Positions 46,901 through 63,115 of a stretch of DNA of 64,000 nt are shown here, one piece after another. The number at the start of each line of letters is the position of its first letter. Position 1 is the stretch's first letter. The notes below the pieces were generated by a model. It was not told the origin of the DNA. It made no database searches and saw only the letters and a program-made list of their open reading frames with translations. Position numbers and translations under genes: made by a program. The stretch is from an uncultured Spirochaetota bacterium (GTDB lineage: Bacteria > Spirochaetota > Spirochaetia > SZUA-6 > Fen-1364): contig CAWGAA010000001.1 of assembly GCA_963820525.1 (NCBI GenBank), positions 2,294,203-2,358,202 of the forward strand, read 5' to 3'.

Positions 46901-49230
46901 ACGGCCTCATAACGGTCACCGGGACGGCCACCGACGCTGGAGCGGTGGATCAAGTGGAGTTCAGCGACGACGGCAAGACCTACGCCGCCGTGACGGGGAC
47001 CGGGGTGTTCAGCATGCCTCTGGACCTCTCCAAGTACACCAAGCTCCCGGAGGCGTTCTACTTCCGGGCGAGGGACAAGAGCGGCAACATATCCGTATTC
47101 ACCGCGGCGCTGAACGTCCAGCAGGAGACCGACATACCTACGGTTCAGATCCAGATCCCGCAGGACGGGGAGGTGCTCAGGAGCGATTTCACCATCTCCG
47201 GGATGGTGTTCGACGACGACGGAGTGGGGTCGATCTCCTACCGAATCGACCAGGGGCCGATCCAGAAGCTTCCCGGCTCCAACAGCTTCGACATCCCCCT
47301 CCGCCTTGAGGACATGAGCGACAACGAGCACGCGATCGAGGTGATGGCGGAGGATCTCAACGGGGTGCCCAGCAAATCAGCCACGTCGACGTTCAAGATC
47401 TCAAAGGCGGAGCCGACTTCGCGCCTGACATCTCCGGCTTTGAGCACCACGACGCGGGGCGTCATCACCCTTGCCGGAGAGTCGATGGACAAGAACGGCA
47501 TCAAGGAGATATCCATCTCCTTCGACAACGGCCAGACCTTCAACCTCGCCGAGGGCAAGGAGAAATGGGCCTACCGTCTCGATACCCAGATTCTCAAGGA
47601 CGGCACCTACTCCATCATCATCAAGGCGGTGGACGCGTACGGGACCGAGGGGCTTTTCTCGACGCTTCTCAACATCGACAACCAGCCGCCGCAAATCATC
47701 CTGGACACTCCCAAGGACGGCGCGCCTGTTACGGAAAGCCTCGCAGTCGATGGACGCGCCATCGACAATATCGACCTTACCTCCCTGAAGGCCACTCTTG
47801 CGCCGCTGGGCTTGAAAGGATCAAGCCCTGCCTCCTGGGATCTTCCGCGGAAGGGGCATTTCTCCTCGGCGCTGGATCTCAAGGCCGTCGCGGCCGGATG
47901 GTACAACCTAACCCTGGAGGCAACGGACAAGGCGGAGAACTCGGCCAAGATCTCCAGAAACGTGCTCGTCCAGGAAAAGAAGGCCGTGAACACGGTGCAG
48001 ATCCTCTTCCCCGTGAATGGGGAAAGCATTTCGGGATCGTTCACCCTGGCGGGAAGGGTGCAGTCCTCCGAGAAGGTCACGGAGGTCGGCTTCAGCGTGG
48101 ACGGTCAGGCCGCCGGAACCATTCCCATGAACGACAACGGCTACTTCACAATGGCCGTCACGCCGGAATCCCTTCAGGACGGGACGCATTCCCTCGAGGC
48201 GCAGGCCAGGCTCGCGGGAGACCTCGTGATCCGCTCGGAGCCTCGAAGCATCGTCTACAGGAAGCTGGGGCCGTGGATCAGGATCACCAGCAACGCACCC
48301 GGGGATTTCGTCACCTCCCGCCCCTTCATCACGGGAGAAGCGGGCTTCACCTCGGAGCCTGCGGATCCCGCGGACAAGGAAGCCGTGGCTCGCGCGCAGC
48401 GGGAGCGCGATGCTCATCGGATCGAGCGCATCGAGGTGAGCCTCGACAATGGGAAGAGCTTCACGGCCGTTTCGGGGCGCGAGAAGTGGCAGTACAGGCT
48501 GGAGACGCAGAACTATCCCGACGGAGAAGTCAGGTTCATCGCACGGGCCGTTTTTACGGACGGATCGACGGCATTCGACGAAACTCTCCTCACGATCGAC
48601 GACACGCCGCCCCAGGTTGTCCTGCTCTCCCCGCGTGAGGAAGGCCGATTCAACGGGGAGATCTCTCTGCTCGGTACGGCTCATGACGAGAATGGAATCT
48701 CCCAGGTGCGCGCCGCGGTCCGCCAGGGAGACAAGGCGAACTACGAAGTGCCCGGCTTCATCCAGGGCCTCTACTTCGAAGGCCACGCGCTTGGAGCCAC
48801 CGAATGGGACTTCGGCATCGGGCTCACGTTCTTCGACGACAACGTCAAGCTCCAGGCCCAGGTGGGCACGGCTCCCGAAGGGAGGTTCTCGGGCCTGGTC
48901 ATTGGGACGAAGCTTCTGGCCAACATCTTCCGCCTCCCCTTCAGCTATTTCCTGGGGCCCGACTGGGACCTGCTGTCCCTGTCCCTGGCCATCGGCGCCA
49001 ACTTCTCCTACGTCACCAACTCGGGCAGCGCGATCGCCTTTACAGACAAAGGCCTGATCATCGGAGGAGTCGTGGGTCAGCTGGAGTTCCCCATCGTGAA
49101 GCTCAAGTCGTGGCCCCTGTTCAGGACATACTCGCTGTACACGGAGTACCAGCTCTGGTTCATCTCATCGGACATCAGCGCGGGCTTCGTGAGCCGGATG
49201 GCTTTCGGCGCGCGGATCGGACTGTTCTAA
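43912..49230 (+). CDS. Large (1,772 aa) secreted Ig-like repeat protein with a beta-strand-rich, aromatic-terminated C-terminal region (possible outer-membrane anchor).
   Basis: Signal peptide (RRILKRCLLSLSFLLGFQAASFAAG). Repeated ~95-aa modules (SPxxGxxVxGxVxLSGTAxDDDGV). Last ~170 aa have alternating hydrophobicity and end ...GARIGLF. GAGGT SD. Confidence 0.75.
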   Translation: MEDMSGANRRILKRCLLSLSFLLGFQAASFAAGSKEADFKKTDGRDNWEYTYDISTMAPGKYNLIVEGKDKAGNVSTAGPYNVYIDPKSDLPVAGISNPTPGLRVGGDLHIVGTCVDDDGVDRVEVKLDDGEFVKADGREYWSYSLEAASMADGRHTVSARGVDINGLVGEPVSVSFNLDTHRPVIAIVSHKSGTIVSGTVTLSGTATDANGIKSLACSQDNKKTFRELPLRRGKDDTSAQFELTVDTKKLADGPYAYWFGSLDMTGSTGYTAFLLFVDNTGPSIEILKPKSDEKVSGRVAVIGKITERIGIKSFSYDGGEANRGAIELAPGNPYWIHEFDFSKPRASSARILFTVVDLVGNTTTKDLTVQILPDEADLPVVTLRSPAANGVYPADVLLSGSVRDDDGVKAVQYSIDGGKPVVLDSREAFSAMLTELPAGKHKLAIHGVDTNDRPGKDVTVEFTSRGKPPAVTVESVSSGKESVPFRPGFEIARDKGAVLVGRISTLGQLKSLECSLNGAPAQKLSTKGADKAGEASFEIRIPPTVSFGMVTLSVRATDQSDQVGEFKSIIHVTNYSKRNIEPGIYFLQTRAQADGTILLTPEMPLVGIFTGEEIRSVSIEPPSDVLSIALDGEKITVSPRGTGAAGPLHVKVVSAKGRVFTSPELGFQADTSGGAASAAIDFSRIVQGKDSFEYSPGMRLVIDRSTLLTGTAAIAAQVKSAEYALQGGPARGFGLKKLDTAGQYGFEIPLPPELPYGKIDLRMAVTDASGQKTVLSTSFFRVEKESGTDNDGEGIYLADSRIDSTGALLLAPGESIGGYFNGRPVKEIRLDPDTPLLSAAADGNFIRLSAVKEGMPASVRLRLTTVDGDFFQSDPYTVRSDAGAPAVTVDSPRTGDWVGARLRLKGSASDPNGIVKLEYALNSSDAFTAIPPAGGSGSSGFDIPLDLADVPDGDVGLTVRAADGAGRQSVVSLRFMKDSEGPAISLVTPPAEDPVNGLITVTGTATDAGAVDQVEFSDDGKTYAAVTGTGVFSMPLDLSKYTKLPEAFYFRARDKSGNISVFTAALNVQQETDIPTVQIQIPQDGEVLRSDFTISGMVFDDDGVGSISYRIDQGPIQKLPGSNSFDIPLRLEDMSDNEHAIEVMAEDLNGVPSKSATSTFKISKAEPTSRLTSPALSTTTRGVITLAGESMDKNGIKEISISFDNGQTFNLAEGKEKWAYRLDTQILKDGTYSIIIKAVDAYGTEGLFSTLLNIDNQPPQIILDTPKDGAPVTESLAVDGRAIDNIDLTSLKATLAPLGLKGSSPASWDLPRKGHFSSALDLKAVAAGWYNLTLEATDKAENSAKISRNVLVQEKKAVNTVQILFPVNGESISGSFTLAGRVQSSEKVTEVGFSVDGQAAGTIPMNDNGYFTMAVTPESLQDGTHSLEAQARLAGDLVIRSEPRSIVYRKLGPWIRITSNAPGDFVTSRPFITGEAGFTSEPADPADKEAVARAQRERDAHRIERIEVSLDNGKSFTAVSGREKWQYRLETQNYPDGEVRFIARAVFTDGSTAFDETLLTIDDTPPQVVLLSPREEGRFNGEISLLGTAHDENGISQVRAAVRQGDKANYEVPGFIQGLYFEGHALGATEWDFGIGLTFFDDNVKLQAQVGTAPEGRFSGLVIGTKLLANIFRLPFSYFLGPDWDLLSLSLAIGANFSYVTNSGSAIAFTDKGLIIGGVVGQLEFPIVKLKSWPLFRTYSLYTEYQLWFISSDISAGFVSRMAFGARIGLF

Positions 49231-49569
49231 GGGCCGCCACGCGGCGGCGGTCGGCGGAAGGGCGCCGTTCTGCGTGGTGCAGGATTCGGCGCCTGGATTT
49301 TCAAGGCCGAGCGCCCCCCTCGCGGCGGGGAGATTTCCCAAACAAAAAGCTGGAAACGAACCCGTTTTGACGGTACATTGCGGAGAGAGGGCGCCGAATC
49401 GGGCCCTCGGAGCAGCCGCTCGGAGGCAGCAGCTTTTCGCGCGGCGAGAGTCGCCCCGTATGGGGGGCTCAATGCAACGGTTTCGATCGTCGGAACCGGG
49501 CCGGATCGCCCGAGAGGGGATCAATGGGGGCCGCCGAAACGGCCCGGAAAGGCCAGAGGAGGAATCCGC

Positions 49570-50091
49570 ATGAACAATAAAGTGTTCTCTTTCGACATGG
49601 GAAGGATCATGGACGAAGCGTTCAAGTGCGCCGAGGAGTTCGGCAAGGCCTTCGACCATGAGACTGCGGAGCGGATCCGCCGCGCCGCTGAACATCACGG
49701 GATGGGCCACTTCGGAACGCCGGACTTCTATCCCGGGTATCTCTATCCGCCGGCCAACGTCTACCTCACCAAGGAGAAGAAGCTCATCCTGGAGATCGCC
49801 CTTGCGGGATTCGAGGAGAAGGACATCTCCATCCAGTTCCGGGGAGATTCGCTTCTGTTCTCGGTAAAGGCTCCGGCGGCGGGCGAATCGGAGGAGAGCG
49901 TGCAATACTTCAAGCGCCGGCTGAAGTTCAGGGACATCGAGGAACAGCGCTATTACGTTCCCGCGGACAAGTTCGACCAAGCCGCCACGAGCGCGACCTT
50001 CAAGAACGGGCTCCTGCGCGTCGTCATTCCCCCGAAGGAGCAGGCCGAACAGGGCGCCGAGATCAAGGTGGATATCAAGACCGAGGGCTAG
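49570..50091 (+). CDS. Hsp20/alpha-crystallin small heat-shock protein.
   Basis: Start reassigned to ATG 49570 (MNNKVF) with AGGAGG SD. ACD with LLRVVIP near the C-terminus. Confidence 0.85.
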   Translation: MNNKVFSFDMGRIMDEAFKCAEEFGKAFDHETAERIRRAAEHHGMGHFGTPDFYPGYLYPPANVYLTKEKKLILEIALAGFEEKDISIQFRGDSLLFSVKAPAAGESEESVQYFKRRLKFRDIEEQRYYVPADKFDQAATSATFKNGLLRVVIPPKEQAEQGAEIKVDIKTEG

Positions 50092-50145
50092 GCCCAGGGG
50101 AGGTCCCTCTCTGGACAGAGACCGGTTTCGGAGTATCATCGAAGC

Positions 50146-51522
50146 ATGAGTTCGGCCTTCGGTCCCGAAGCCGAGCCCCTTTACACGCACGAGCCTCCCG
50201 CGGTATACAGACCGCTGCACACGTCCCGGTTGGAAAGGAGGAAGACACCGCCCGTGCGCTTCGTGCATCGCATCACCCGGTTCGTCTTGCTTTTAGCGGC
50301 CGCCGCGGCGCTCGCCCGGCCCCCGTTCTCAGGGGCTCTCCCTGCGGTCTCCACCGCAAACTCGGAGCCGGTCCCCCTCACTCTAGCGGCCCGCTCCGCC
50401 ATTCTCATCGACCAGGCCACCGGCCGCGTGCTGTTCGAGAGGAACGCGGATACTCCGCTCCCCCCCGCTTCGCTCACAAAGCTGATGACGCTCCACCTCG
50501 TCTACCGGAAGCTGGAAGACCGCTCCATCGAGCCCGATGACGTGGTGACCATCTCCACCAATGCGTGGGCCCTCCACCAGGCCCCCGGCTCCTCGCTCAT
50601 GAACCTGGAGCCCGGGCAAATCGTCACGGTGGAAGAGCTCATGAAAGGGATGGCGGTCGCTTCGGGCAACGACGCGGCCACCGCTCTCGCCGAATACGTC
50701 GCCGGGACCAAGGAGAAGTTCGTCCAGCTGATGAACGAGGAATGCAGCTGGTTCGGCTACAAGAGCATGCACTTCACGGATCCCGCCGGAGTGGATGAGT
50801 CCAACAGGGTGACGGCGCGGGAGTTCGCCGATTTCTGCCGCCATTACATCGAGCTCCACCCCCAGTCGCTCTCCCAGCTGCTCTCGATACGGGAGTTCGA
50901 GTACCCCCAGCCCAGGAATCTGCCCGAAAGATGGCCCGAGGAGCGCAGGCTGAAAGTGAAGCCGGTAAAGCAGTTCAATGGCAACTTCCTGGTATGGAAC
51001 GGGATCGACGGCCTGAAGACGGGGCACCTCGATGAAGAGAACTTCACCGCGGCCATAACGATGAAAGAGGGGGACACGAGGCTGATAGCGATTGTTCTGG
51101 GGGTCCCGGGACGCACTCTCTCGGAAGGCTACCGCCAGCGCGCGGAGGACTGTCTTGCGCTCTTGTACTATGGACTGCGCACCTTCGCCACGCAGGCCGT
51201 CGATATTCAGCCAATCAAGCCGCTTCGAGTATGGAAAGGAGCCCGAGAAACCGTGGCCGTGGCGCCCTCCGGCCCTCTCCATGTGACGGTAAGGAAGAGC
51301 GAGTTCGATAAGATCTCCTACTCGATCGTGACCTCCTCAGCGGTTGTCGCCCCCCTGCGCAAAGGCCAGAAGGTGGGAGATATCGTCTTCTACAGCGGAA
51401 CCGAGGAGATCGCGCGCTACGGCCTGCAAGCCGCGGAGGACCTCGAAGAGGCCGGGATCTTCAAGCGGGCCTGGGACGCCGTATTGATGAGCGTTGACAC
51501 GCTGTTGGGGGGCGTCGGCTAG
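50146..51522 (+). CDS. D-alanyl-D-alanine carboxypeptidase (peptidase S11, PBP5-like).
   Basis: SLTK (SxxK), SGND (SxN), KTGHL (KTG). The signal peptide lies ~aa 35-60, so the true start may be an internal GTG (~50254). Confidence 0.8.
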   Translation: MSSAFGPEAEPLYTHEPPAVYRPLHTSRLERRKTPPVRFVHRITRFVLLLAAAAALARPPFSGALPAVSTANSEPVPLTLAARSAILIDQATGRVLFERNADTPLPPASLTKLMTLHLVYRKLEDRSIEPDDVVTISTNAWALHQAPGSSLMNLEPGQIVTVEELMKGMAVASGNDAATALAEYVAGTKEKFVQLMNEECSWFGYKSMHFTDPAGVDESNRVTAREFADFCRHYIELHPQSLSQLLSIREFEYPQPRNLPERWPEERRLKVKPVKQFNGNFLVWNGIDGLKTGHLDEENFTAAITMKEGDTRLIAIVLGVPGRTLSEGYRQRAEDCLALLYYGLRTFATQAVDIQPIKPLRVWKGARETVAVAPSGPLHVTVRKSEFDKISYSIVTSSAVVAPLRKGQKVGDIVFYSGTEEIARYGLQAAEDLEEAGIFKRAWDAVLMSVDTLLGGVG

Positions 51523-51613
51523 GGCGAGAAGGCCGTTCCAGCGCACGCTCGACGCGGCATCCGCCTGCTTCGACTCACACACGACGCGGCGCCTGCTCGC
51601 TTCGGCGCCCGCC

Positions 51614-52723
51614 CTATGGGTACTGTTTCTTCAATCTTCCCAGCATCCCGAGGTATTCGAGGCCCGTTACGGGCTCATCCGGCTTGAAGCTCACGCCGTC
51701 GGGAAGATCCATGATCTCCCGCTCCACCACCCCCAAAGCAGCATCGAACCAGGGGGCATCACGGGGGATGTCCGAAACGGGGCTGACTGAGTATTTGAGG
51801 CTGTATTTTTCCAGAAGCTTCGGGTCCCTCTCCATGCGGGCCACGATTCCCCAGAGAAAGAAGGCCACCTGTTTCCTCGACACGGTCGAGTCGAGGGGGG
51901 CTTCCGGCTCGAGGAGGATTCCTGCCTGATCGAGGGCGGAAAGAACCGATTCCGCCGCCGGCGTGGGATTGGTCGAGAGAGCGGAGAGGAGGCGGGTTTC
52001 GGCAAAGACCCGCTCAACCATGGCGCGAACGGTAAGCTGCCCTTCGAGGGTCTGTGCCTGCTCGGGGGGCGTGATCGAGCCCGTGTCCCTGGCGGCTTGC
52101 GCCATGGAGAATGCCCGGTCGCGGTCTGCGGCATAGAGATCCCGATAGCGGGGATCCAGGCCCCGAAGCCCTTCATCCAGGTCCTGGGCAGCCTCCGCAT
52201 AGCGTCCCGCCCTGAAAAGCTCCTCGCCCCTCTCGCAGAGAATTCGGGATTTCTTCTCCGCCTTCTTCGCACCCAGCTCGAGGACGGCAAGGCGCTTCGC
52301 AGCATCCGCCTCCAGGCCGGCGCGAACGAGCCAGAGGCCCTCATCCGTGTCGGCGAGCACAGCGGCGGCATCGGCGAACCCCATGGCGGCAGGGCGATCT
52401 TTGGCGAGCAGCGCCGCCTCGCCGCGCAGCGAGGCGCAGCGCGCCTGCACCCTGCGGTTCAAGCCGGGCTTTCCGGCAAATCTCGCGAGCTCAGCCTGGA
52501 GCGCCGCCAAGCCGGCAGCATCGGGAGCGAGCCGCAGATCGAGGAGGCGAAGCTCAAGGGAATCGAGGGCTGCCTGCTCCTGTTCTCCCGAGCTTTGCGC
52601 GATGAGGTCTGCGGGGCCGCTCTGGCATGAGGCGAGAGCGAGGAGGATGCCCGCGGCAAGCGATGCAAGGAGAGTGATCGCGCCAAGCGGCGCCTTTTGA
52701 CAGCCGGAAACGCGGCGGGTCAT
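51614..52723 (-). CDS. Lipoprotein with TPR-like helical repeats, function unknown.
   Basis: Lipobox LALASC. Ala/Leu-rich repeats. 4-nt overlap with the upstream gene. Confidence 0.45.
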   Translation of the reverse strand: MTRRVSGCQKAPLGAITLLASLAAGILLALASCQSGPADLIAQSSGEQEQAALDSLELRLLDLRLAPDAAGLAALQAELARFAGKPGLNRRVQARCASLRGEAALLAKDRPAAMGFADAAAVLADTDEGLWLVRAGLEADAAKRLAVLELGAKKAEKKSRILCERGEELFRAGRYAEAAQDLDEGLRGLDPRYRDLYAADRDRAFSMAQAARDTGSITPPEQAQTLEGQLTVRAMVERVFAETRLLSALSTNPTPAAESVLSALDQAGILLEPEAPLDSTVSRKQVAFFLWGIVARMERDPKLLEKYSLKYSVSPVSDIPRDAPWFDAALGVVEREIMDLPDGVSFKPDEPVTGLEYLGMLGRLKKQYP

Positions 52724-55380
52724 TTGCCCCTTCCCATGGAATAACCGTAGATCTTCCCGTCGATCCCCGCCGTCAGGAAGTCAACGGCGCCGTCGCCGTT
52801 CACGTCGATCAGCTGGGGCCGCGACACGCCCTTCACGGGAAATCCGCCGAGGGGGCGCAGGGAAGCGTCGTATCCGCAGATAAAGGCCCCCGACCCGTAG
52901 AGGAGGAGGTCCTGGCGGCCGTTTCCGAAGAGGTCCGCGACCAGGATCCGGGCTTTCTTGCCGTCGAGGTCGGCCACGCTCGTCTGCCTGATGACGGCGC
53001 CGTCCAGCCCAATGATGCTCACGCCGCCGTCTTGTGAAAGCGTCACCAGGGCGGACGCCCCATCATCCAGACGGATCTGCTGCGGAGTGGCGTAATAGAC
53101 TCCCGGCAGCGAAAGGGGGAAAGGGGCGACGGGCTTTCCGGCGATGTCCCAGAGATGGAGCGAGCCCGCCTGGGTCATGAATGCGACGAGGTTCGACTCG
53201 CCCGCGTGGACGAACCGCGGAGAGCAGAATGAGATGCCGGAGGCATCGACGGGCCAGCCGGCGGCCTCGGTACCATCGAGGTCGGCGAGGTGCACCTTCG
53301 AGTCGAAGCTCTTCGGGAAAAATGCAAGCCGTCCCGGCGGGGAGTAGTCGGGCGGGGCAAAGAGGGGAGCCTCCAGCTTCTCCGGGAAAACGCTTCGCTC
53401 GCCATCCTCACCGATCAGAACGAGAGCCGAGTCCGCCTTTGAGTAGAGAGCGAGCTTTCCGCCGACGCACTTCGGGGGCATGGGGCCGGAGATCCCGGTT
53501 GCCATGGGAAAGGGAGGGTGAACCTTCAGGTCCGGGCCGAAGCGCCAGACCGTTCCCCCCGGAGAGACCGCCCAGACCGCGGCCATTGCCCCTCCGTCCT
53601 CTCCATCGGCGACGAGGGTCGAATCGGGCTCCAGCTTCTCCTCTCTGATCGGGGTCCCGTCGGCTTCAGCAAAAACGAGGGCGGATCCTTCCCGCAGCCA
53701 GGCAAGCGTCGTCCTGCTATTGTCACGGAAATGGAATGCAAGAACATCTGCCGACACCCCCCCATCGGGAGAAAGCGGGAACCCGGGCAGGAGCTTGAGG
53801 CCGAGCCGCTCGCCGTGCGCGGCCGAGAGCGCCACCCGCAGCCCCGCCGGGGTGGCGCGGACGGCGGCGACGCCGCGGCCATAGAGCCGCAGGACATCGG
53901 CAAGAAGCCCGGATCCGCGGATGAAGAACGGCTCGGTCCGTTCGATATCGTACCAGAGAAGGAGGGAGGCGTCCGAGGGAATGCCCTGGCTCAGCCTGGC
54001 GAACAGAGAAACATGGGCGAGATTATCCGCCGTGTCTCCTGCCTTGGCGACGGCAGCCAGATTCTGGGCGTCCAGTGAGAGAAAGAAATAGCCGCCGAGC
54101 GTGATGAAATACGGCTCGGGCACGTTCATGCCGATCGTGTCGAGAATGGTCTTCAGGTACCAGGGAATGGAGATCCGGTCGATACGAACCCCGTCGAGCA
54201 CGAGTGAGCTGTCCTTGGTGGCCACGAGGGATTTGGTGATCTTGTCCATCGCGCGCTTGTACGCTCCCCTGTCGGCTATCCGCGCGAAGAAGACGGGATC
54301 CCCCGACTCCTCGGCCATGAACGCGCCGATCTCGGCGCCCACCCAGGAAAAGAGAAGCTCGTCTATCCCCGCCCCTACCACGGTTCGCGCTCCCGAGTCG
54401 GCCCGAGTGTAGATCCCCTCCACGTCGGCGCCCTGGAATGCGGCGGCCAGGCGATACATGTCGGCAAGGGGGGCGACATTGGAAACCGACAGGAAGTAGG
54501 AGGAGGCGGGGACATAGCGGAGCACTCCGATCGGAGCGGGGTTCCTGGCGAGGGTCTGAGACAACTCCGGCATCGTGACCTCAAGGGGGAGATCCGCGCC
54601 GAGGGTCAGGCGGTCCGGCCCAAGCTCGACGTCGAGCATCGACTGGCCCGGGAGCTCCATTGAGTCGAGGAGCTTGGCCCCAATTCCGCTTCCCGAGAGA
54701 AGCTCCGAGGAAAGGCTTCGGGTGTCGGCCAGCACGCGGACCGCGCGGCCGCTTCGAAGCCGCACCCGGTCCAGAAGCTCGCGGCTCGCCCTGGCTGCGA
54801 GCCCGCTATCCGACGCCCGGCGCGCCAGGGCATCCTTGACGACGTCGGGATCCAGAGAGACGATCGCGATGTCGTTCATAAAAGCGGCGTGGATCGTGGT
54901 CTCCCCCGTCTTGTAGCGGTACATCGGAATTCCAGATTCGTTGAGGAAGCTGAAACCCTTGATATTGAGCACGGGGCCGACCAGGCGCGCCAGTGGCGTG
55001 AACATTCCGCGCCATCCCAGCGGCACAACCGCAAGAAGCTTGCGGTTCTGTAGGAGCATGATGTCGGCCTGCACGTCGAGGAGGTTGCGCAGGATCGGCG
55101 AGCGCGTGAGGGCCAGGCCGCGGGCGCTGGTCACGACTCGGCGGTACTGGGCGAGGTCGGGCCGTGCCAGGACCGCATCGGCAACCTCCAGGTTGAGCCA
55201 CTCCTCGAAGATGCCGCGGATGGAAGGAACCTGGAGGTAGGCCATGTACTTGTCGGGGAGGAAGGCGGCGGGGTCCTCACGATGAGCCAGCCAGCGGAAA
55301 AAGAGCACCCCGATAGCCAGCACCATCGCGCAGAGGATTCCGAGCAAAACCTTGAGCAGAACGCTGAAGAATCTTTTCAT
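52720..55380 (-). CDS. Membrane-anchored 886-aa protein with C-terminal FG-GAP/beta-propeller-like repeats.
   Basis: N-terminal TM (VLLKVLLGILCAMVLAIGVLFF). C-terminal ...DVNGDGAVDFLTAGIDGKIYGY and ...FGNGRQDLLLYGSGAF FG-GAP-like motifs. Confidence 0.5.
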   Translation of the reverse strand: MKRFFSVLLKVLLGILCAMVLAIGVLFFRWLAHREDPAAFLPDKYMAYLQVPSIRGIFEEWLNLEVADAVLARPDLAQYRRVVTSARGLALTRSPILRNLLDVQADIMLLQNRKLLAVVPLGWRGMFTPLARLVGPVLNIKGFSFLNESGIPMYRYKTGETTIHAAFMNDIAIVSLDPDVVKDALARRASDSGLAARASRELLDRVRLRSGRAVRVLADTRSLSSELLSGSGIGAKLLDSMELPGQSMLDVELGPDRLTLGADLPLEVTMPELSQTLARNPAPIGVLRYVPASSYFLSVSNVAPLADMYRLAAAFQGADVEGIYTRADSGARTVVGAGIDELLFSWVGAEIGAFMAEESGDPVFFARIADRGAYKRAMDKITKSLVATKDSSLVLDGVRIDRISIPWYLKTILDTIGMNVPEPYFITLGGYFFLSLDAQNLAAVAKAGDTADNLAHVSLFARLSQGIPSDASLLLWYDIERTEPFFIRGSGLLADVLRLYGRGVAAVRATPAGLRVALSAAHGERLGLKLLPGFPLSPDGGVSADVLAFHFRDNSRTTLAWLREGSALVFAEADGTPIREEKLEPDSTLVADGEDGGAMAAVWAVSPGGTVWRFGPDLKVHPPFPMATGISGPMPPKCVGGKLALYSKADSALVLIGEDGERSVFPEKLEAPLFAPPDYSPPGRLAFFPKSFDSKVHLADLDGTEAAGWPVDASGISFCSPRFVHAGESNLVAFMTQAGSLHLWDIAGKPVAPFPLSLPGVYYATPQQIRLDDGASALVTLSQDGGVSIIGLDGAVIRQTSVADLDGKKARILVADLFGNGRQDLLLYGSGAFICGYDASLRPLGGFPVKGVSRPQLIDVNGDGAVDFLTAGIDGKIYGYSMGRGK

Positions 55381-55471
55381 GCTACCCCAACCTTCGCGGA
55401 CAAAATAGCTTAAAAACAGCGGGGACGCAATCGGCTGAGGACAAGGACGGGGCGAAGAAGATTCGACTGGC

Positions 55472-55526
55472 TTCTAAAATGGTGGTTTTAGAAATCGTTG
55501 ACAAATGCAATCTGATGATCTATAGT
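55472..55526 (+). promoter_or_regulatory. Sigma70-type promoter (TTGACA-17 nt-TATAGT) preceded by inverted repeat TTCTAAAA-N6-TTTTAGAA (candidate operator). Lies in a low-GC islet.
   Basis: Read directly: -35 at 55498..55503, -10 at 55521..55526, a second TATAAT at 55531..55536, AAGGGAGG SD 5 nt before ATG 55587. Confidence 0.6.
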
Positions 55527-55586
55527 ATCTTATAATTATATAGGTGGGCGGCAAGAACATCTATTTAGAAAGAAAGGGAGGAATTT

Positions 55587-55922
55587 ATGAACAGAGCTAT
55601 CCTGAAAAAGATCGTTTACTTGGCGATCGCGCTTTCTTTTGTTGGGCTGATGATCGGGTGCAGTCTCAAGTCAGATGAAGAAGCAATCATAGGTAAGTGG
55701 GCATATGCGTATGTCATCGAGGCTTACAATTTCACATCAGATGGAAATGTAATTATAGCGGGTACCATACCAGGCACATGGACAATGGATACAGGATCGA
55801 AACATCTGACTATTACTCCTACAGGCGGCTCCAGCACCACCTACGACTATTCTTTCAGTTCAGATAAAAACACGCTTACACTTGACTCCGGATCCGGCGC
55901 AATGACTTTCACGAGAATGTAA
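55587..55922 (+). CDS. Small (111 aa) lipoprotein of unknown function encoded in an AT-rich (~42% GC) islet.
   Basis: Lipobox GLMIGCS. Codon usage and GC are sharply different from the flanks. Strong promoter and SD. Confidence 0.7.
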   Translation: MNRAILKKIVYLAIALSFVGLMIGCSLKSDEEAIIGKWAYAYVIEAYNFTSDGNVIIAGTIPGTWTMDTGSKHLTITPTGGSSTTYDYSFSSDKNTLTLDSGSGAMTFTRM

Positions 55923-55958
55923 CTGTTTTATCAACCCGGCTTGAATCTCGACGAAGGT

Positions 55959-55987
55959 GCGGCCGCACAGGCCGCCCTTTTTTTGCT
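55959..55987 (+). terminator. Rho-independent terminator (GCGGCC-gcaca-GGCCGC then T7).
   Basis: Hairpin plus TTTTTTT directly after the small lipoprotein gene. Embedded in the 12-bp palindrome GTGCGGCCGCAC. Confidence 0.6.
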
Positions 55988-56014
55988 CCTTGGCAGGCTC
56001 ACCGCCAAAGAGAA

Positions 56015-56038
56015 CGGCCGCCCCTTTCGGGGCGGCCG
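56015..56038 (-). terminator. GC-rich 10-bp hairpin CGGCCGCCCC-tttc-GGGGCGGCCG. Possible minus-strand terminator or structured element.
   Basis: Perfect stem. A T-rich run follows on the minus strand only. Confidence 0.35.
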
Positions 56039-56192
56039 CCTGGAATCCGCCGAAGCGGATCCCGACAGATTTGACTGTCTAGATGCCAAACCCCTCAAGG
56101 TCCGGCGATTGAGATTCGATTCCCATTCTGCACCTCCTTTCCTTGCTGTTCGAAAGCGTGAACTTCCGTCCGCGGCCGGATTTTCGATATGA

Positions 56193-56222
56193 AAAGAGCC
56201 ACCCTGCCAGGGTGGCTCTCGT
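56193..56222 (-). terminator. Rho-independent terminator for the FHA gene.
   Basis: AGAGCCACCCTG/CAGGGTGGCTCT stem followed by TTTTC on the minus strand. Confidence 0.55.
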
Positions 56223-56242
56223 ACCCCGATATCCGGTCCTTT

Positions 56243-56629
56243 CTACTTCTTCTCTATCTCTTCCTCGATATAGAATCGAAGGATCGTGTTTCCCAGGACG
56301 ATGCGGTCCCCGTAATGGAGTTGGGTCTTTCCCTTCAGCTGTTTCGAGTTGAGGTACGTCGAGTTCGTGGAGCCCAGGTCCTCGAGGAAGAACTCTCCCT
56401 TCTCGTCTATGCTGACGGAGCAGTGCTTCCGGCTTAAAAGCGGATCGGGTATGGCAAGATCGCACTCGTGGTGCCGCCCGACGATGACCCCGGAGCCGCC
56501 AACGACGCACGACTTTCCGAAGAAATCAGGCGAGAGAACCACCAGGAGGGCTTTCTTGCCCAAAAACCCGGCGGCCTTGAGCTTCCTGTGATCTTCGCTT
56601 AAAAGTGTTTTTTCGTTTTCGTCTGCCAT
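56243..56629 (-). CDS. FHA (forkhead-associated) domain protein.
   Basis: Start reassigned to ATG 56629 (MADENEKT) with GGAGGA SD. FHA motifs GR..CD..I....SR.H and NGT/NSTYLN. Confidence 0.7.
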   Translation of the reverse strand: MADENEKTLLSEDHRKLKAAGFLGKKALLVVLSPDFFGKSCVVGGSGVIVGRHHECDLAIPDPLLSRKHCSVSIDEKGEFFLEDLGSTNSTYLNSKQLKGKTQLHYGDRIVLGNTILRFYIEEEIEKK

Positions 56630-56738
56630 CGTGCCCCCGATCCTCCAAACGTGAGTATTCGTCCGGCTCTGCCTCCTGTCAAGGCGCGGGTGGAGGGTCG
56701 CGACGTGGCCGCCGGACATTGGCGGCGCCGGGCCCGCT

Positions 56739-57617
56739 TCAGCCCGCGAAAATCCGCTCGAGAGCCTCTCGCATCACCCCGGCATCTACATCGACGCCGG
56801 TCCAGTACTTGATCCCGATCACCCCCTGCTCCACCAGCATCGCCAGACCGTCGATCACCCGGCATCCCCGCTCCGTGGCCGTGGAGATCAGGTGGGTGCG
56901 CGGAGGATTCGGGATGACGTCGGCCACCAGCATGCGCGAGGAAAGGGTGTCGAAATCGACATCGAGGCGCGCCGAAACGTCGGGAAAAAGGCCGATCGAG
57001 GTGGCATTGATCACGACGTCTGTCGAATCGGGAATGCTGTAGCGAGGCGTCCAGGCTGAAAGCTCGGCGGGAACCCTGAGCGCTGCCCCGAGCAGATCGA
57101 CAAGTTCCCTCCCCCTGCTCTTCGTGCGATTGACAATGGTGATCGCCGCTGCCCCGGCCAGAGCGGCCTCCACGGAGATTGCCCGGGCCGCCCCCCCAGC
57201 GCCGAAGATCAGGAAGCGCTTTCCCTTGGGATCGATGCGTTCTCCGAGGGACTTGAGGAATCCCTTTCCGTCCGTGTTTTCGCCGATAAGCTTGTCCCCC
57301 CGCCGAACGACACAGTTGACGGCGCCCATGAGGGCCGCCGATTCGCCCAGACCGTCAAGGTGGCGGACAACCGCCACCTTGTGGGGGATGGTGCAGTTGA
57401 AGCCGGCAAAGCCCATGGCCCGGGCCCCGCGCACGGCGTCTTCGAGCCCTGCCGGGTCGACCTCAATGGTGAGATATCGCCAGTCGAGTGAATGATGCCG
57501 GTATGCGGCCTCGACCATGGCCTGAGTCGGGTTTTCCGCGACGGGCTTGCCGAACACCGCGGTAAGCTCCTGCTTGAAGCTCAATTGCTTTGCCATGGCG
57601 CCCTCCGATGCCGCCAT
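56739..57617 (-). CDS. aroE: Shikimate 5-dehydrogenase.
   Basis: NCTIPHK, GAGGAARA Rossmann motif, GxGMLxxQG-like C-terminus. Confidence 0.85.
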   Translation of the reverse strand: MAASEGAMAKQLSFKQELTAVFGKPVAENPTQAMVEAAYRHHSLDWRYLTIEVDPAGLEDAVRGARAMGFAGFNCTIPHKVAVVRHLDGLGESAALMGAVNCVVRRGDKLIGENTDGKGFLKSLGERIDPKGKRFLIFGAGGAARAISVEAALAGAAAITIVNRTKSRGRELVDLLGAALRVPAELSAWTPRYSIPDSTDVVINATSIGLFPDVSARLDVDFDTLSSRMLVADVIPNPPRTHLISTATERGCRVIDGLAMLVEQGVIGIKYWTGVDVDAGVMREALERIFAG

Positions 57618-57768
57618 TCTACCCGGATTCGACGCGCGGTCAAAGAATTGGCATGGGCGAAGAGAACACCGGCCCGCTTCAAAAAGGTTTCAGATCCCCA
57701 GCGTGAGGACAGGCCGGTGTCACGGCTGGTTCGTCAGGGAGAGAGAGAGGATGAGGGGAAGCTCGGAA

Positions 57769-58350
57769 TCAGCCGGCTTTCTGGTATTCCGGCTCGTTTC
57801 CCGGCTTCCACTTGATGCTGCAGCCCATGCTGGGGCGCTGCTCGGCCGGCACGGCTTTTCCCGCGAGCACCGCGTCCAGGGCACGGCGAAGGTCCGTGCC
57901 CGTGATGGGCACGTTGTTTCCCGGCCTGCTGGAATCCATTTGTCCGCGATAGACGAGCTTCCTCTGCTTGTCGAAGAGGAAAAAGTCCGGCGTGCATGCG
58001 GCGCGGTACGCCTTGGCGATCTCCTGGATCTCGTCATAGAGGTAGGGGAAGGTGTATCCTGCGGCCTTCGCCTCCTTCGCCATCCCCTGAGGCCCATCCT
58101 CCGGATGGCTGGCCGGATCGTTGGCGCTGATCCCCACCACCGCCACGCCCTTGGCCTGGTACTCCTTGATGAGGCTCACCAGCGCTTTCTGCACGTGCTT
58201 CACGTACGGGCAGTGGTTGCACATGAAGATAACGAGGAGCGCCGGCGCCGTCTTGAAATCGCCCAGCGATACTGTCTTTCCGTGAACGTCGGGGAGCTTG
58301 AAAAATGGTGCGGGGGTGCCGAGGGAAATCATCGTCGATGTCGCCGCCAT
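57769..58350 (-). CDS. Thioredoxin-fold (TlpA/AhpC-TSA-like) protein.
   Basis: CNHC active-site motif. 193 aa. Confidence 0.75.
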   Translation of the reverse strand: MAATSTMISLGTPAPFFKLPDVHGKTVSLGDFKTAPALLVIFMCNHCPYVKHVQKALVSLIKEYQAKGVAVVGISANDPASHPEDGPQGMAKEAKAAGYTFPYLYDEIQEIAKAYRAACTPDFFLFDKQRKLVYRGQMDSSRPGNNVPITGTDLRRALDAVLAGKAVPAEQRPSMGCSIKWKPGNEPEYQKAG

Positions 58351-58855
58351 GTCTTTCTCCTTCCTTTGAGATGCTCACATTCAGATTACTCACGCGCAAT
58401 GGGAAAGTCAAAAATCCAGGTGCCGTTTGCCCGCCATCGTTTCATTTCGGTACCTATGAAGAGAATGTCGGCGCTCGCGCTGATCGCTTTGCGAGATGCA
58501 GTCCTACGACTACCAGCTCACCCCGGCGGAGAAGGATGCGCTGATCACGCTGATGCGGGACGGAGTGCGCCTGGTAAATGTCGCCTCCACCAACAAGACG
58601 ACGATCGACCCATCCTGAACAGCGGCCAGAACCTCGTGGCAGAGCTCAGTCACACCCAGGCTGAGGAGTTTCTCTCCAACCTGAGCAGGGCGACGACCGA
58701 GGGAGACGACTTCCAGAGGCAGGTCAAGCTGTTTCAGTAGGGCGCGGGGATTCTCCGCGCATGATGCACCCGGGCCGCCGTTTCCGCGCGTGGCCTGCAC
58801 GGCCCTAAAAAATAGTGTTTGACTCGACCCCGCCTTCCCGGTTTATCGTGCTCGG

Positions 58856-59338
58856 ATGGAACCGAAATGGATGAAGAGCTCGAGATTCGAAAGGATCGGG
58901 AATTTCACCCTCAAGGGGCCCCGAAGCGCCGTGTTTCCACTCCTCTGCCCGGTGCTCGAGTACCAGTGGCTTCCCGGCTGGAAGTGCACGATGGCGTACT
59001 CCGATTCCGGCATTGCTGAAAAGGATGCAATCTTTCATACTGTGGAAATGCTGGGAAGAAAAACGGTGTGGACCGCGATCACCTACCAGCCGGACACGTT
59101 CATCGAATACCTGATCGTGAGCGGCCGGGCGGCGGTGGTCCGCCTGAGCATCGCCCTGGAAAGCGGAGAGGGCGGGACGACCGCGGTCACCTGGCGGATG
59201 CTCTTCACCGCGACTTCAATGCTCGGCCGCATAGCGTTGAGCAGAGCCTTTTCGGAAGAGAGTTTCATGAAGATGATGAACAAACGCGAAAACGAGCTGA
59301 ACCATTTCCTGGAAAAGGGGAAGATGATCGATGCATGA
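58856..59338 (+). CDS. SRPBCC (START/Bet v1-like polyketide cyclase) superfamily protein.
   Basis: 160 aa. Composition and length fit. No strong motif. Confidence 0.45.
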   Translation: MEPKWMKSSRFERIGNFTLKGPRSAVFPLLCPVLEYQWLPGWKCTMAYSDSGIAEKDAIFHTVEMLGRKTVWTAITYQPDTFIEYLIVSGRAAVVRLSIALESGEGGTTAVTWRMLFTATSMLGRIALSRAFSEESFMKMMNKRENELNHFLEKGKMIDA

Positions 59339-59368
59339 GCGCCAGCTTCTGGCGGAAGGATTGATCAC

Positions 59369-59571
59369 ATGGAAATCAGAAAGGCACGCCAAGCCGACGC
59401 GGGAAAAATCTCGGACCTTCTTGGCCAGCTCGGGTATCCCCAAACCCAGGGCTTCATCTCGGAGAAGATCGCGCAGCTCTCCGCCCGATAAGCTATCTTT
59501 GCGTCGATGAGTCCGCCAGGGGCAATGGCGTCGGCCGAGAGCTGGAGTCGTTCTGCGCCCCGCGGCTCTGA
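59369..59571 (+). pseudogene. GNAT N-acetyltransferase remnant in two frames, internally deleted and truncated.
   Basis: Frame 1 reads MEIRKARQADAGKISDLLGQLGYP...* (59369..59491). Frame 2 reads SYLCVDESARGNGVGRELE...* (59491..59571) and carries GNAT motif A. Total coding is ~65 aa versus ~160 expected. Confidence 0.45.
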
Positions 59572-59588
59572 TCAAACACAGACGGGAA

Positions 59589-59614
59589 GAACACCCCGCT
59601 TTCGCGGGGTGTTC
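59589..59614. terminator. Bidirectional terminator hairpin GAACACCCCGC-tttc-GCGGGGTGTTC between the GNAT remnant and the OMP gene.
   Basis: Perfect 11-bp stem. The T-rich tail is better on the minus strand, serving the OMP gene. Confidence 0.55.
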
Positions 59615-59629
59615 TTATGCCGGCACAGT

Positions 59630-60649
59630 TCAGAATGCAAAGGTGTAGGAAACCTTCAGCTGAGGTTCGAAGAATGGTGCGACGTTCTTGTCGTTTGCAT
59701 CCGATGCCGCATTTGAGTCGATCTTGTTGCACTTGAAATCGCCCTCCAGGTAGAGACCGCCGATCTTGTAGCTGACTCCCGGCGCGATCCACGTGTCGTG
59801 CCAGGGGGCGGCGGAGGTGTACTTCGTTGCAGTGGTGTAGGTGGAAACGCGGCTTGAGACGAATGCCCTCAGGCCGGTAACCCCTATGCCGCCGAAGTCG
59901 AAGCTCAGCTTGGGCTCGATGTAGAGGTAGAGGTCATCGGAGCCGTTTGCACCGCCGTTGGCGTAGTTGTCGTTGAAACAGAATGCGGCCTTGGCGTCCA
60001 GCTGCGCGGGTCCATAGACAAAGCTGAGCTGGGGCTTGACGTCGAAGAGGGTGAGAACGGGGGTGAAGCCGGTGTCGGCTTCGGCGCCCACCGTCAGGGC
60101 GGTGATGGTATCGAAGGCGAATTTGTAGCTCAGCTTCGCGTAGTTGGTGACCCAGAAGCTCTGGGTGTAGTCGGGGGTAGGAGAGTTGTTGAAGTAGCCA
60201 TAGCTGTAGGGCTTGTAGGCATATTTCAGCTCATTGATGCCGCTTGCGTCTTGCGGAGAGAAAAACACGAGCGGGAAGCTCACCTTCGCATCCAAGCCGC
60301 CCGCCAACAGCTCGACCGAGGGCTCCACCTTGCCCGCCATCTGGAACTCGTAAGGGGCCGTAGCGCCTTGGTAGAGGCCGATCCAATCCTCGGCGTACAA
60401 GCCATACTTCAGCGAAAATGAATCCATCTTTTGCGTGAGCGTGTAGCTCACGTAGGGCTGGACGTTCGGGGCATACTTGTCGGTCTGGTTGCCGTTCGCG
60501 GTAAAGCCGTTCCGGCCGTCCGCGTAGACGCGGGTCACGTCCGTCAAGTAGCCGCCAGTCCCGACCTCCAGCGAAGACTGGGCTGAGATCGAGGCTGCAG
60601 CGGCGGCTATGAACAAAAGGACAAGGAACATTGGCTTTGAGCTTCTCAT
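59630..60649 (-). CDS. Outer-membrane beta-barrel protein (porin-like).
   Basis: Signal peptide (MFLVLLFIAAAAASISA). Alternating amphipathic strands. C-terminal ...VSYTFAF OMP signature. AGGAGGA SD. Confidence 0.65.
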   Translation of the reverse strand: MRSSKPMFLVLLFIAAAAASISAQSSLEVGTGGYLTDVTRVYADGRNGFTANGNQTDKYAPNVQPYVSYTLTQKMDSFSLKYGLYAEDWIGLYQGATAPYEFQMAGKVEPSVELLAGGLDAKVSFPLVFFSPQDASGINELKYAYKPYSYGYFNNSPTPDYTQSFWVTNYAKLSYKFAFDTITALTVGAEADTGFTPVLTLFDVKPQLSFVYGPAQLDAKAAFCFNDNYANGGANGSDDLYLYIEPKLSFDFGGIGVTGLRAFVSSRVSTYTTATKYTSAAPWHDTWIAPGVSYKIGGLYLEGDFKCNKIDSNAASDANDKNVAPFFEPQLKVSYTFAF

Positions 60650-60824
60650 CTTGAACTCCTCCTGGCTTACCTGAAGCCGACAGCTTCATTTCTCTCGCCA
60701 GGAACGTTATGTATTCTTTGTTAGAGGTCGATGAAGAGTCCATGAATTCTCGATGAAGTTGCGCCCTCGCGGACCGCTCGTGCTCACTCTCCCCAGCCAC
60801 GGGTTGCGGGCCCGCCGGCCGCGC

Positions 60825-61493
60825 TCATCCCTTGAGTTCCCCCTCTTCCTTGTGGTGCTTGATCACCCTGCCTTCCACCATGTAGATGACGTCCTCGCAG
60901 ATGTTGGTGGACAGGTCCGCGATGCGCTCGAGGTTGCCGGCGATCCGAAGGAGCGACAGCCCCTGGAGGATCGTGGAAGGGTCGCTTGCCATGGAAGAAA
61001 TGAGCTCCGTGAGGGTCTCCGTGGCCAGATCGTCCACGATGCTGTCGTCCGCGCAGACCTTCTGCGCGAGACCCGCCTGTTCGCCGATGTAGGCCTGGAT
61101 GCTCTGGTCGACCATCCGGATAGTTTCCCCGGCCATACGTGGTATGGTAGCCAGCGGCCGCGGGGTGGGACCTTCCAGCAGGCTGAGCCCCGCCTGTGCG
61201 ATGTTCACCGCGTGATCTCCCATGCGCTCCAGGTCATTTGTGATGCCGAGCGCCATGATCACCGTCCGCAGGTCCTTGGCCCTGGGCTGGTACTGGGCGA
61301 TGAGGACGGTGCACTCCTCCTCGAGCTCGATCTCGAGCTCGTTCACGCGCTTTTCGCTTTCGTCGATAATCCGGCGGAGCGCATCGGCCTTCCCATCCTG
61401 GAAAGCCCTGACGGCTCCCTCCATCATCTCCTCCACCAGCCGCGCGTACATGACCAGCCGCGACTTCAGGGCATCTATCTGTTGGCGAAGCAT
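60825..61493 (-). CDS. phoU: PhoU (second operon).
   Basis: [13 protein letters not shown]... PhoU repeats. Called separately from the 778-aa track ORF. Confidence 0.85.
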
Positions 61494-61502
61494 CACGTCT
61501 CC

Positions 61503-62282
61503 TATCCGAATTTCCCCGCGAGGTATTCTTCGGTGCGCTTGTCCTTCGGCACGGTGAAAAGCCTGCTCGTCGGGCCGAACTCCACGAGCTTCTCCCAGGT
61601 GGATGAACGCCGTGAAGTCCGAAATCCGCGCCGCCTGCGGCATATTGTGCGTGACCTGGACAATCGTCACCGCTTCCTTGAGGGAAACGATCAGCTCTTC
61701 TATGGCGGCGGTCGCCTTGGGATCGAGGGCCGACGTCGGCTCGTCGAGGAGGAGGATCTCGGGATTCATGGCGAGCGCCCGGGCGATGCACAACCGCTGC
61801 TGCTGGCCTCCGGAGAGGAAGGTCCCCCGACGGTAGAGAGCGTCCTTCACCTCGTTCCACAGCGTCACACGGCGCAGCGTTTCCTCCACCACGCGGTCGC
61901 GCTCAGCTTTCGACATGCGGGCGCCGTTCAGGGTAAAGCCCGCGATCACGTTGTCATAGATGCTCATGGTTGGGAAAGGATTGGGCCTCTGGAAGACCAT
62001 TCCGATGCGCCTTCGAAGCTGTATCGGGTTGAGCTGGTACACGTCCTCGTCGTCCAGAAGGACCCTGCCGCTCACGTGGGCGTTGGGAGCGAGCTCGTGC
62101 ATGCGGTTGATGCAGCGCATGAAGGTGGTCTTTCCGCACCCCGAGGGGCCCATGATGGCGGTGATGCGCCTCGCCGGGATGGAGAGACTGACCTCTTTCA
62201 CGACATCCTTCCCGTCGAAGCCGGCCGTGAGGTTTTCCGTCTTCACAATGGCGTACTCCGCGGTCAGAACTGGATCTTCCAT
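61503..62282 (-). CDS. pstB: PstB (third copy in window), with an apparent 1-nt frameshift ~25 codons from the 3' end.
   Basis: [22 protein letters not shown]. The canonical C-terminus [29 protein letters not shown] lies in the +1 frame from ~61583, while the in-frame reading runs into phoU. Start overlaps pstA by 19 nt. Confidence 0.75.
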
Positions 62283-63115
62283 CTCGATGTCACCAGCTTT
62301 GTCACGAGGTTCAAGACGAGAATAAGAACGAGCAGGACGAACGAAGCGCCCCAGGCAAGAGACTGCCACTCGGGGTACGGGCTCGTAGCGTAGTAGAATA
62401 TAATCTGCGGCAGGGAGCTCATGGGCCCCAGAACGTTCACGGTCATGAAGGGACTTCCGAAAGCCGTGAAAAGGAGGGGGGCGGTCTCTCCGGCGCCCCG
62501 CGCCACGGCGAGGAGCGTCCCGGTGACAATCCCGCTTGCCCCGGCCGGGAGGATCACCTTGAGCACGGTTCGGGGATACGAGACTCCGAGAGCCAGGGAC
62601 GCTTCCCTGAGGCTCACGGGGATCATGCGGAGGGTTTCCTCGGTGGCCAGCGTGATGACGGGGAGCATGATCATCGAAAGGGCGATCCCGCCTGAAAGGG
62701 CCGAAAAATGACCCATCGGCTTTACCACCCACACATACGCCACGATGCCGAGCACGATGGAGGGGATTCCCATCAGGGTCTCCACGGAGACTCTCGTAAT
62801 CGAGCCAAGACGGGACCTGCCGCTCTCCGACAGGAATATGCCGGCAGTCAGTCCCAGGGGAATCGAGATGACGGAGGCGATGACGATGAGGAGAGCGCTC
62901 CCCACGATCGCATTGGATATTCCACCCCCCGTCTCCCCTATAGGCTTGGGAAGCTCCGTGAGGAACGCCCAGTTGATGGAGGAGGCTCCCCTCGCGATGA
63001 TGAAGGCGAGAATCAGGATGAGCGGCAGCGTCGCTATGAGCGACAGCGCCAGCATGCCCCCCATGAACACCCTGTCTCTCCGGAGGCGTCCCGCTACTGC
63101 CGATTCCCTGATCAC
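62264..63115 (-). CDS. pstA: PstA (second operon).
   Basis: 283-aa permease. Operon position. Confidence 0.85.

Follow-up and report, generated by a model that had tools for sequence, protein, structure and literature searches.

What is a gene-sized islet of low G+C (GC) content doing in a GC-rich spirochaete genome, and how did it come to be there? The question is raised by a 64,000-nt stretch of DNA from an uncultured Spirochaetota bacterium (hereafter the window, on which all coordinates are based), in which positions ~55400-55990, the part lowest in GC, hold the gene for a small lipoprotein. The original prediction had described a drop in GC over ~600 bp and a self-contained expression cassette of atypical composition, and had interpreted it as a recent acquisition or as a locus under tight repressor control, with a product of no recognizable family. 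The description is borne out by our analysis, the interpretation only in part. We think it probable that the islet is a one-gene replacement islet, in which a monocistronic gene for a barrel lipoprotein of the DUF5640 family exists as two old alleles that are exchanged by homologous recombination.

The low GC content is evident on every scale examined. Scans in 200-bp windows gave values of 0.395-0.46 over 55400-55899, against a background of about 0.63 for the 64 kb, and when the window was divided into 128 bins of 500 bp, the bin 55501-56000 had a GC content of 0.446, with 0.546 for the runner-up and 0.60-0.68 for typical bins. The lipoprotein open reading frame (ORF) has a GC content of 0.45 and a GC content at third codon positions (GC3) of about 0.48-0.49, the minimum among all ORFs listed for the window, where credible genes have a GC3 of 0.63-0.88. 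Both the predicted GC drop and the predicted AT-rich codons are therefore real; as to whether native small genes might be equally low in GC, this gene is unique in that respect within the 64 kb covered.

The islet is occupied in all conspecific strains that we could find, in two very different forms. The conspecific sample comprises eight contigs, all metagenome-derived, from NCBI, Logan, JGI and ENA assemblies. Four carry the version present in the window, allele A: the window's own genome, L001 (from ERR10755944), L014 (GCA_964512965.1) and L029 (from ERR3804376, a fourth sample). The other four carry allele B, a diverged version first seen in two JGI contigs that align end to end with the window (L015, 14.8 kb, and L016, 12.7 kb) and found also in L025 (from SRR33367050, 99.97% identical to L015) and in the ENA fragment P0083, a 620-bp contig. 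No third allele, intermediate or empty site was detected among the eight. The flanks of these contigs are 98.3-99.5% identical, and the divergence is confined to a sharply bounded block of 593 bp, the borders of which are identical between the alleles (anchors GACGCAATCGGCTG on the left and GGCGGCCGCCTGGAATCC on the right) and across independent assemblies:

55438 to 56030, no strand: low-GC replacement block, in which 268 of 627 aligned positions differ from allele B, against ~1% in the flanks

The window and L015 differ by 42.7% in this block and by 1.07% in the 2.6-kb right flank; of the 440 differences between them over 14.8 kb, 271 fall in four 200-bp bins (55394-56193). The two forms nonetheless are much alike in composition, with a block GC of 0.459 for allele A (593 bp) and 0.456 for allele B (583 bp), although GC3 is higher in allele B (0.59). 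The allele B product has 113 aa and shares 58-60% protein identity with that of allele A. Synonymous divergence (dS) between the alleles is saturated at 1.62, with a nonsynonymous divergence (dN) of 0.31, while dS in five flanking genes is only 0.007-0.031. This disparity indicates that both versions are far older than the strains carrying them, and the dN/dS ratio of 0.19 indicates that the lipoprotein is under purifying selection. With every conspecific site occupied by one of two low-GC forms that are separated by a dS of ~1.6, the notion of a recent acquisition is too simple, and the data speak for a standing replacement locus with two forms, not for a one-off recent insertion.

Comparison within allele A provided evidence for exchange. 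The window and L014 differ at 1 of 593 positions in the cassette (0.17%) and at 44 of 2622 positions in the flank (1.68%), a rate at which ~10 cassette differences would be expected. The same pattern was observed for L029, whose 309 bp of cassette show a single difference, again S73A. Thus, the cassette is ten-fold less diverged than the flank in the window/L014 pair, and the background of allele B is closer to the window overall. A cassette less diverged than its surroundings suggests that allele A was shared recently between backgrounds, and the mismatch between cassette and flank reads as the signature of allelic replacement by homologous recombination. Just outside the block, in the 5´ untranslated region and initial codons of a divergently oriented 886-aa gene, we also noted 9 differences between strains within 55369-55399, two of them synonymous.

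The lipoprotein ORF lies at the following position:

55587 to 55922, plus strand: gene for a 111-aa prolipoprotein, predicted to be a DUF5640 lipocalin-like eight-stranded barrel; signal peptide at residues 1-24, Cys25 encoded at 55659-55661

The dN/dS ratio between the alleles, a Pfam score above the gathering threshold and a confident structure model together indicate that the gene is real. The N-terminus MNRAILKK contributes charged residues (R3, K7, K8), followed by the hydrophobic IVYLAIALSFVGLMI and G-C25, with L-M-I-G-C as the lipobox, and leaves a mature lipoprotein of ~87 aa. In allele B the signal peptide is kept and the lipobox is LVIGC. We judged the lipobox by eye with a PROSITE-type pattern (charged N-terminus, hydrophobic stretch, [LIVM..]-[..]-[AGS]-C, Cys at ~residues 15-35), and the N-termini of both alleles match this pattern for bacterial lipoproteins, the substrates of signal peptidase II; lipidation at Cys25 is thus predicted.

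The family, which the original prediction could not name, emerged from profile searches. Allele A matches PF18692 (DUF5640) at 29.6 bits, where the gathering score that we took as the threshold of membership is 28.5 bits (E 6.4e-7, profile positions 1-76 of 85), and gives weaker Pfam matches to two 'lipocalin-like' families. When the protein or a two-allele profile served as query, word-indexed homologue searches returned only a 99% variant and an allele B fragment, and an exhaustive HMMER search of 1.84 billion representatives returned 69 proteins at E<=1e-3. DUF5640 matches (E<=0.01) were present in 37 of the 43 distant homologues tested. Most homologues are 100-130 aa long; their signal peptide ends in Cys, one strand carries G-x-W, and they also have an F..DG motif and, at the C-terminus, Y.Y.FS.D..TLTL. 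No PHROG matched the lipoprotein below E 0.02, and NCBIfam gave nothing meaningful.

An AlphaFold2 model built from an alignment of the DUF5640-type homologues found by HMMER (mean predicted local distance difference test score, pLDDT, 89.2) shows an N-terminal helix at residues 4-23, corresponding to the signal peptide, and then eight strands. PDB searches by structure (Foldseek) and by sequence profile agree on a lipocalin-like barrel, and the model has the marks of that fold: a calycin-type barrel of eight up-and-down strands with G-x-W in the first strand. A kernel lipocalin of the Blc/ApoD type, recognized by ~160-180 residues, an N-terminal 3-10 helix and a C-terminal alpha-helix on the barrel, was rejected; the mature protein of ~87 aa ends after strand 8, without the C-terminal helix. 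The protein instead resembles DUF5640 (PF18692), Lipocalin_4 (PF13648) and DUF4923 (PF16270) in its length (~105-120 aa) and in its signal peptide with Cys, and resembles DUF5640 and the lipocalin-like families, of which Bacteroides BT_0846 (2m4l), BT_0869 (3hty) and BACUNI_01346 (4qrl) are solved examples, in the first-strand G-x-W, the C-terminal Y.Y.FS.D..TLTL and the eight-stranded barrel. It differs from them in sequence, reaching only 26-43% identity with any family member from beyond this species. We know of no member of these small-lipoprotein families with a tested function, and the literature that we searched does not mention DUF5640.

The closest structural neighbor is potempin E (PotE; 8ehd/8ehc), matched by the profile at E 1.2e-3. 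PotE is an outer-membrane lipoprotein of Tannerella forsythia that inhibits the KLIKK peptidase encoded directly downstream, and it is likewise a lipid-anchored, ~100-residue, eight-stranded up-and-down barrel (PMC9890683). Potempins block their peptidase with an inhibitory reactive-centre loop between strands 7 and 8, and their genes lie directly upstream of, and are co-transcribed with, that of the target peptidase (PMC9890683). Such an arrangement was not found for the lipoprotein gene, which has its own terminator hairpin and T-tract (55959-55984) and lies between the gene for an FHA-domain protein and the 886-aa gene; 4 kb separate it from the closest gene for a peptidase (S11, 50146-51522), which is part of another unit. 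Since no partner peptidase gene is present here, the likeness to PotE is one of fold, not of system. Our best guess from the modelled structure is that the loops of the barrel would serve in binding or inhibition, as in PotE. The small barrel lipoproteins Tp17 (TP0435, 4u3q) and Tp0751 (5jk2) of Treponema pallidum align structurally at 12-16% identity, with no detectable sequence relationship, and differ in function and context.

The divergence between the alleles also serves as a natural footprint of the control region. The promoter, second TATAAT, 8-bp inverted repeat, Shine-Dalgarno sequence, and hairpin with T7 terminator of the original prediction are all present at their predicted positions, and their conservation differs:

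55438 to 55471: distal upstream region, 29% allele identity (random level)
55472 to 55497, plus strand: A/T-tract block upstream of the -35, with the inverted repeat, 77% allele identity
55498 to 55526, plus strand: sigma-70-type promoter TTGACA-17-TATAGT, consensus match 11/12, 79% allele identity from -35 to -10
55527 to 55546, plus strand: conserved block at the putative transcription start, TATC.TATAA.TATATAGGT, 82% allele identity
55547 to 55561: middle of the 5´ untranslated region (UTR), 40% allele identity
55562 to 55586: ribosome-binding-site region, 74% allele identity
55574 to 55581, plus strand: ribosome-binding site AAGGGAGG, 5 nt ahead of the ATG at 55587, GGAGG core kept in allele B
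55953 to 55986, plus strand: intrinsic terminator closing the lipoprotein gene, with a G+C-rich hairpin (55959-55975) and then T7

Both promoter hexamers, the -35 TTGACA (55498-55503) and, after the 17-nt spacer, the -10 TATAGT (55521-55526), are unchanged in the 43%-diverged allele B, which supports this as the working promoter. The second TATAAT (55531-55536) reads TATAAC in allele B, and the most important base of a -10 element is thereby lost there. Judged in this way, function is likely for the -35, -10 and ribosome-binding site and unlikely for the full palindrome and second TATAAT. The plus-strand terminator is not kept in allele B, whose 3´ region differs and ends in a long hairpin; the only G+C hairpin common to both alleles is that of a convergent minus-strand unit. 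The lipoprotein gene is probably well expressed.

We considered several other explanations for the islet, one of which places the weight on regulation, with the 8-bp palindrome as the operator of a dedicated repressor that silences a foreign gene. The arms, TTCTAAAA (55472-55479) and TTTTAGAA (55486-55493), are separated by 6 nt, and 4 nt lie between the repeat and the -35; it is a perfect palindrome without another copy, even at 2 mismatches, in the 64-kb window, which is the range over which its recurrence at other promoters was assessed. The surrounding 55472-55497 is conserved between the alleles, and TTTAGAA occurs again in the 5´ UTR (55564) in both alleles, a possible second site. However, a perfect 8-bp inverted repeat with a spacer of <=12 nt arose in 2.25% of shuffles of the 197-bp AT-rich region, so that the repeat is only marginally above chance and is the weakest of the elements described for the islet. 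In addition, no regulator gene adjoins the cassette, and in allele B the left arm reads ATTCAAAA, such that the A4/T4 core and the right arm are kept and the 8-bp dyad is not. Upstream A/T tracts that act as UP elements are an established part of sigma-70 promoter architecture, and the tracts at -40 to -60 would fit an UP element equally well. Because the left arm is degenerate in allele B, we would rather see in 55472-55497 an A/T tract resembling an UP element, or a single half-site, than a conserved dyad operator, and tight repressor control seems quite doubtful to us.

A single recent horizontal insertion, moron-like or of naked DNA, between the FHA gene and the 886-aa gene would account for the GC of 0.45 and GC3 of 0.49 in a 63%-GC genome, for a self-contained unit with its own promoter, ribosome-binding site, ORF and terminator, and for the absence of the cassette from relatives whose neighboring proteins are 51-69% identical. 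We regard it as unlikely, since the site is filled in all eight conspecific contigs, and two saturated alleles with identical borders would imply two independent hits on one nucleotide position or, as the simpler alternative, allele exchange at an older locus. The cassette neighborhood (±7 kb) contains no integrase, transposase, phage gene, tRNA or reverse transcriptase, the edges of the islet carry no direct repeats or terminal inverted repeats, and there are no phage, plasmid or PHROG matches. The lack of the cassette in distant relatives is not an empty-site test, because the junction itself does not exist there; as regards presence or absence at this junction, the cassette is missing from all distant relatives examined, whereas conspecifics are all occupied, by divergent alleles. 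Several classes of mobile DNA were rejected on the same evidence: a phage moron (phage genes are lacking within ±7 kb, PHROG matches below E 0.02 are absent, and tblastn against 50,697 phage records was negative), an insertion sequence, miniature inverted-repeat transposable element or integron cassette (no edge repeats, no transposase or integrase nearby), and the target of a diversity-generating retroelement (changes of all kinds with indels, in non-coding sequence as well, no second copy of the cassette in the window and no nearby reverse transcriptase). Local hypermutation, or relaxed constraint with an AT bias, could produce low GC and divergence in place; bacterial mutation is generally biased from GC to AT, and coding and non-coding sequence have both diverged within sharp borders. 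A hypermutating spot, however, should exceed the divergence of its flanks in every pair, and the window and L014, with L029 repeating the pattern, show the opposite, which largely refutes this explanation; the low dN/dS and the occurrence of all kinds of changes and indels, not confined to adenines, also make it very improbable. Finally, a chimeric join with DNA of a low-GC organism could be suspected, given that the source is a metagenome-assembled genome and that short contigs end close to the block's edges. Yet the same junctions occur in NCBI, Logan, JGI and ENA assemblies for both alleles, and contigs of 12-15 kb span both flanks, making the chance of an assembly or binning artefact negligible.

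Exchange of old alleles at a fixed site has precedents. The replacement flexible genomic islands of aquatic prokaryotes specify exposed structures, are swapped through homologous recombination and have peaks of substitution at the borders (Lopez-Perez, Martin-Cuadrado, Rodriguez-Valera 2014, PMC4033161). The islet shares with them the same locus in all strains, contents that are divergent yet functionally equivalent, exchange between clonal frames, raised substitutions at a border and an envelope or exposed product. Each of these features could be traced here, in the small sample of eight contigs: the same chromosomal position with divergent, equivalent contents, an allele distribution incongruent with the clonal frame, and the 9 border substitutions at 55369-55399. 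The known islands are multi-gene regions of several to tens of kb (O-antigen, flagellar glycosylation), whereas here a single gene of 0.6 kb is present in two alleles.

A second parallel is offered by Borrelia burgdorferi, whose lipoprotein locus ospC has discrete, divergent alleles that balancing selection maintains and recombination moves. Like ospC, the islet encodes a spirochaete lipoprotein whose discrete alleles lie in near-identical backgrounds and are incongruent with the flanks. The differences are considerable: ospC is plasmid-borne and driven by host immunity and OspC has a helical fold, while the islet is chromosomal, belongs to a free-living peat/fen organism, has two known alleles and encodes an unrelated fold.

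In the replacement model that we favor, the sigma-70-type promoter, strong ribosome-binding site, 111-aa ORF and intrinsic terminator form one monocistronic unit. The Sec-type signal peptide and the Cys25 lipobox would direct acylation and cleavage, leaving a barrel of ~87 residues and eight up-and-down strands tethered to a membrane of the spirochaete envelope. Conspecific strains each carry one of the two anciently diverged, homologous and equally low-GC versions at the same position, and homologous recombination in the conserved flanks would move these from one strain background to another. The dimorphism may be kept by frequency-dependent selection, for example by phages or by the enzymes or toxins of competitors, and the cassette lineage may ultimately be foreign and of low GC.

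Several observations weigh against this model. The sample consists of two alleles in eight contigs, all metagenomic, with neither a third allele nor an empty site. Low GC is hard to square with long residence; had the alleles reached their dS of 1.6 within a 63%-GC genome, GC3 (0.48 and 0.59) should have drifted upward. Possibly the divergence accumulated in a gene pool of lower GC, or the AT-richness is maintained in place. No donor lineage was found: an exact 26-mer of the right flank had no match in metagenome_contigs (a collection to which the JGI samples of L015 and L016 evidently do not belong), a protein-pattern scan of metagenome_contigs gave 501 pattern matches of which none was confirmed, and tblastn gave no match among the 50,697 phage records and none among plasmids. 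Allele B alone scores 21.6 bits against DUF5640, under the cutoff. Lastly, since the cassette has no linked peptidase or toxin gene, the analogy with potempins, which rests on the modelled fold, would be structural only.

A more far-reaching version of the replacement model, which we put forward tentatively and do not expect to be correct, is that the islet is a long-lived, one-gene balanced polymorphism in a free-living peat/fen spirochaete, with ancient alleles under negative frequency-dependent selection and AT-richness that is maintained. The lipoprotein might then serve phages as a receptor or act as a decoy for them, or it might be an orphan inhibitor or an immunity protein directed at enzymes or toxins that competitors secrete. 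The AT-richness would be maintained by selection on expression, or because alleles that no longer recombine with each other would escape GC-biased gene conversion.

The surroundings of the cassette differ between this species and its relatives. The 886-aa gene (52720-55380, minus strand) has no family assignment, and its homologues come solely from uncultured Spirochaetia/Spirochaetota of fen, peat and soil metagenomes. Together with a 369-aa gene it forms a pair (51614-55380, minus strand) that is kept in all Spirochaetia relatives found, with only faint matches to FG-GAP/beta-propeller and SLH/TPR. On the other side are three minus-strand genes, for the FHA-domain protein (56243-56719), shikimate dehydrogenase and a peroxiredoxin-type protein. 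In distant relatives (12 genome loci and 5 further contigs, L002-L013 and L017-L021), the 886-aa protein is 51-69% identical and only the 886-aa and 369-aa genes are still together; the upstream genes vary (a diphthamide-synthase-like gene, an ABC transporter, an SBBP-repeat protein and others), and tblastn detected no relative of the lipoprotein at any of these loci. As far as can be seen from these sequences, the cassette appears confined to one species-level lineage. Two distant members of the family were found on short contigs of 34% and 55-60% GC, and since the GC of each gene matches that of its own contig, neither indicates a donor; rather, the DUF5640-type family appears to be spread across very different genomes. 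Further away in the window, two giant ORFs face apart, of 4770 aa (29443-43755, minus strand) and 1772 aa (43912-49230, plus strand).

Two further features flank the block:

55400 to 55437, minus strand: 38-nt island, 100% identical between the alleles, between the block and the diverged patch 55369-55399
56015 to 56038, minus strand: G+C-rich hairpin with U-rich tail, terminator of a convergent small unit, fold z = -5.3

The 38-nt island may be the promoter region of the divergent 886-aa gene or operon; on its minus strand TTGCGT-17-TATTTT was seen by eye. The right edge of the block passes through the hairpin at 56015-56038; its left arm is altered in allele B, yet a hairpin with T6 after it still forms there on the minus strand. 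Upstream in this unit is a 15-codon ORF, MGIESQSPDLEGFGI (56079-56126, minus strand), which converges on the lipoprotein gene and does not vary among the strain contigs; it is preceded by a strong ribosome-binding site, AAGGAGGTG (56131-56139), and followed by a pair of highly stable hairpins and a U-rich tail (56015-56139 in all, z = -5.3). The unit could be a small peptide gene or a small RNA. An Rfam search of 54800-56900 gave only a sub-threshold match to suhB/mmgR (56000-56065, E 0.74).

We also noted variation in how contigs end and in how divergence is distributed around the cassette. L014 starts at window position 55429, L028 ends at 56208 and P0083 is only 620 bp long, so that assemblies break near the edges of the block. 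Such breaks are expected where strains differ and fit a coexistence of the two alleles in the communities sampled. Between L015 and the window (47594-62378) divergence is mosaic, ~0.1-0.3% over 49400-55190 and ~1-2% at 47594-49400 and 56800-62378, which suggests further recombination tracts beside the cassette.

Collectively, these data assign a family and a fold to an apparent orphan gene and suggest that what the low GC flags is a replacement spot that varies between strains, not a new insertion. Both the protein family and the type of strain variation are known already, and no new mechanism is implied. For the uncultured, high-GC Spirochaetia, one small envelope lipoprotein is flagged as a probable target of strain-level selection. 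If the balanced polymorphism proved true, the locus would be an environmental counterpart of the ospC type of dimorphism, and would offer a small, tractable test case for the AT-richness of recombination-poor loci in high-GC genomes.

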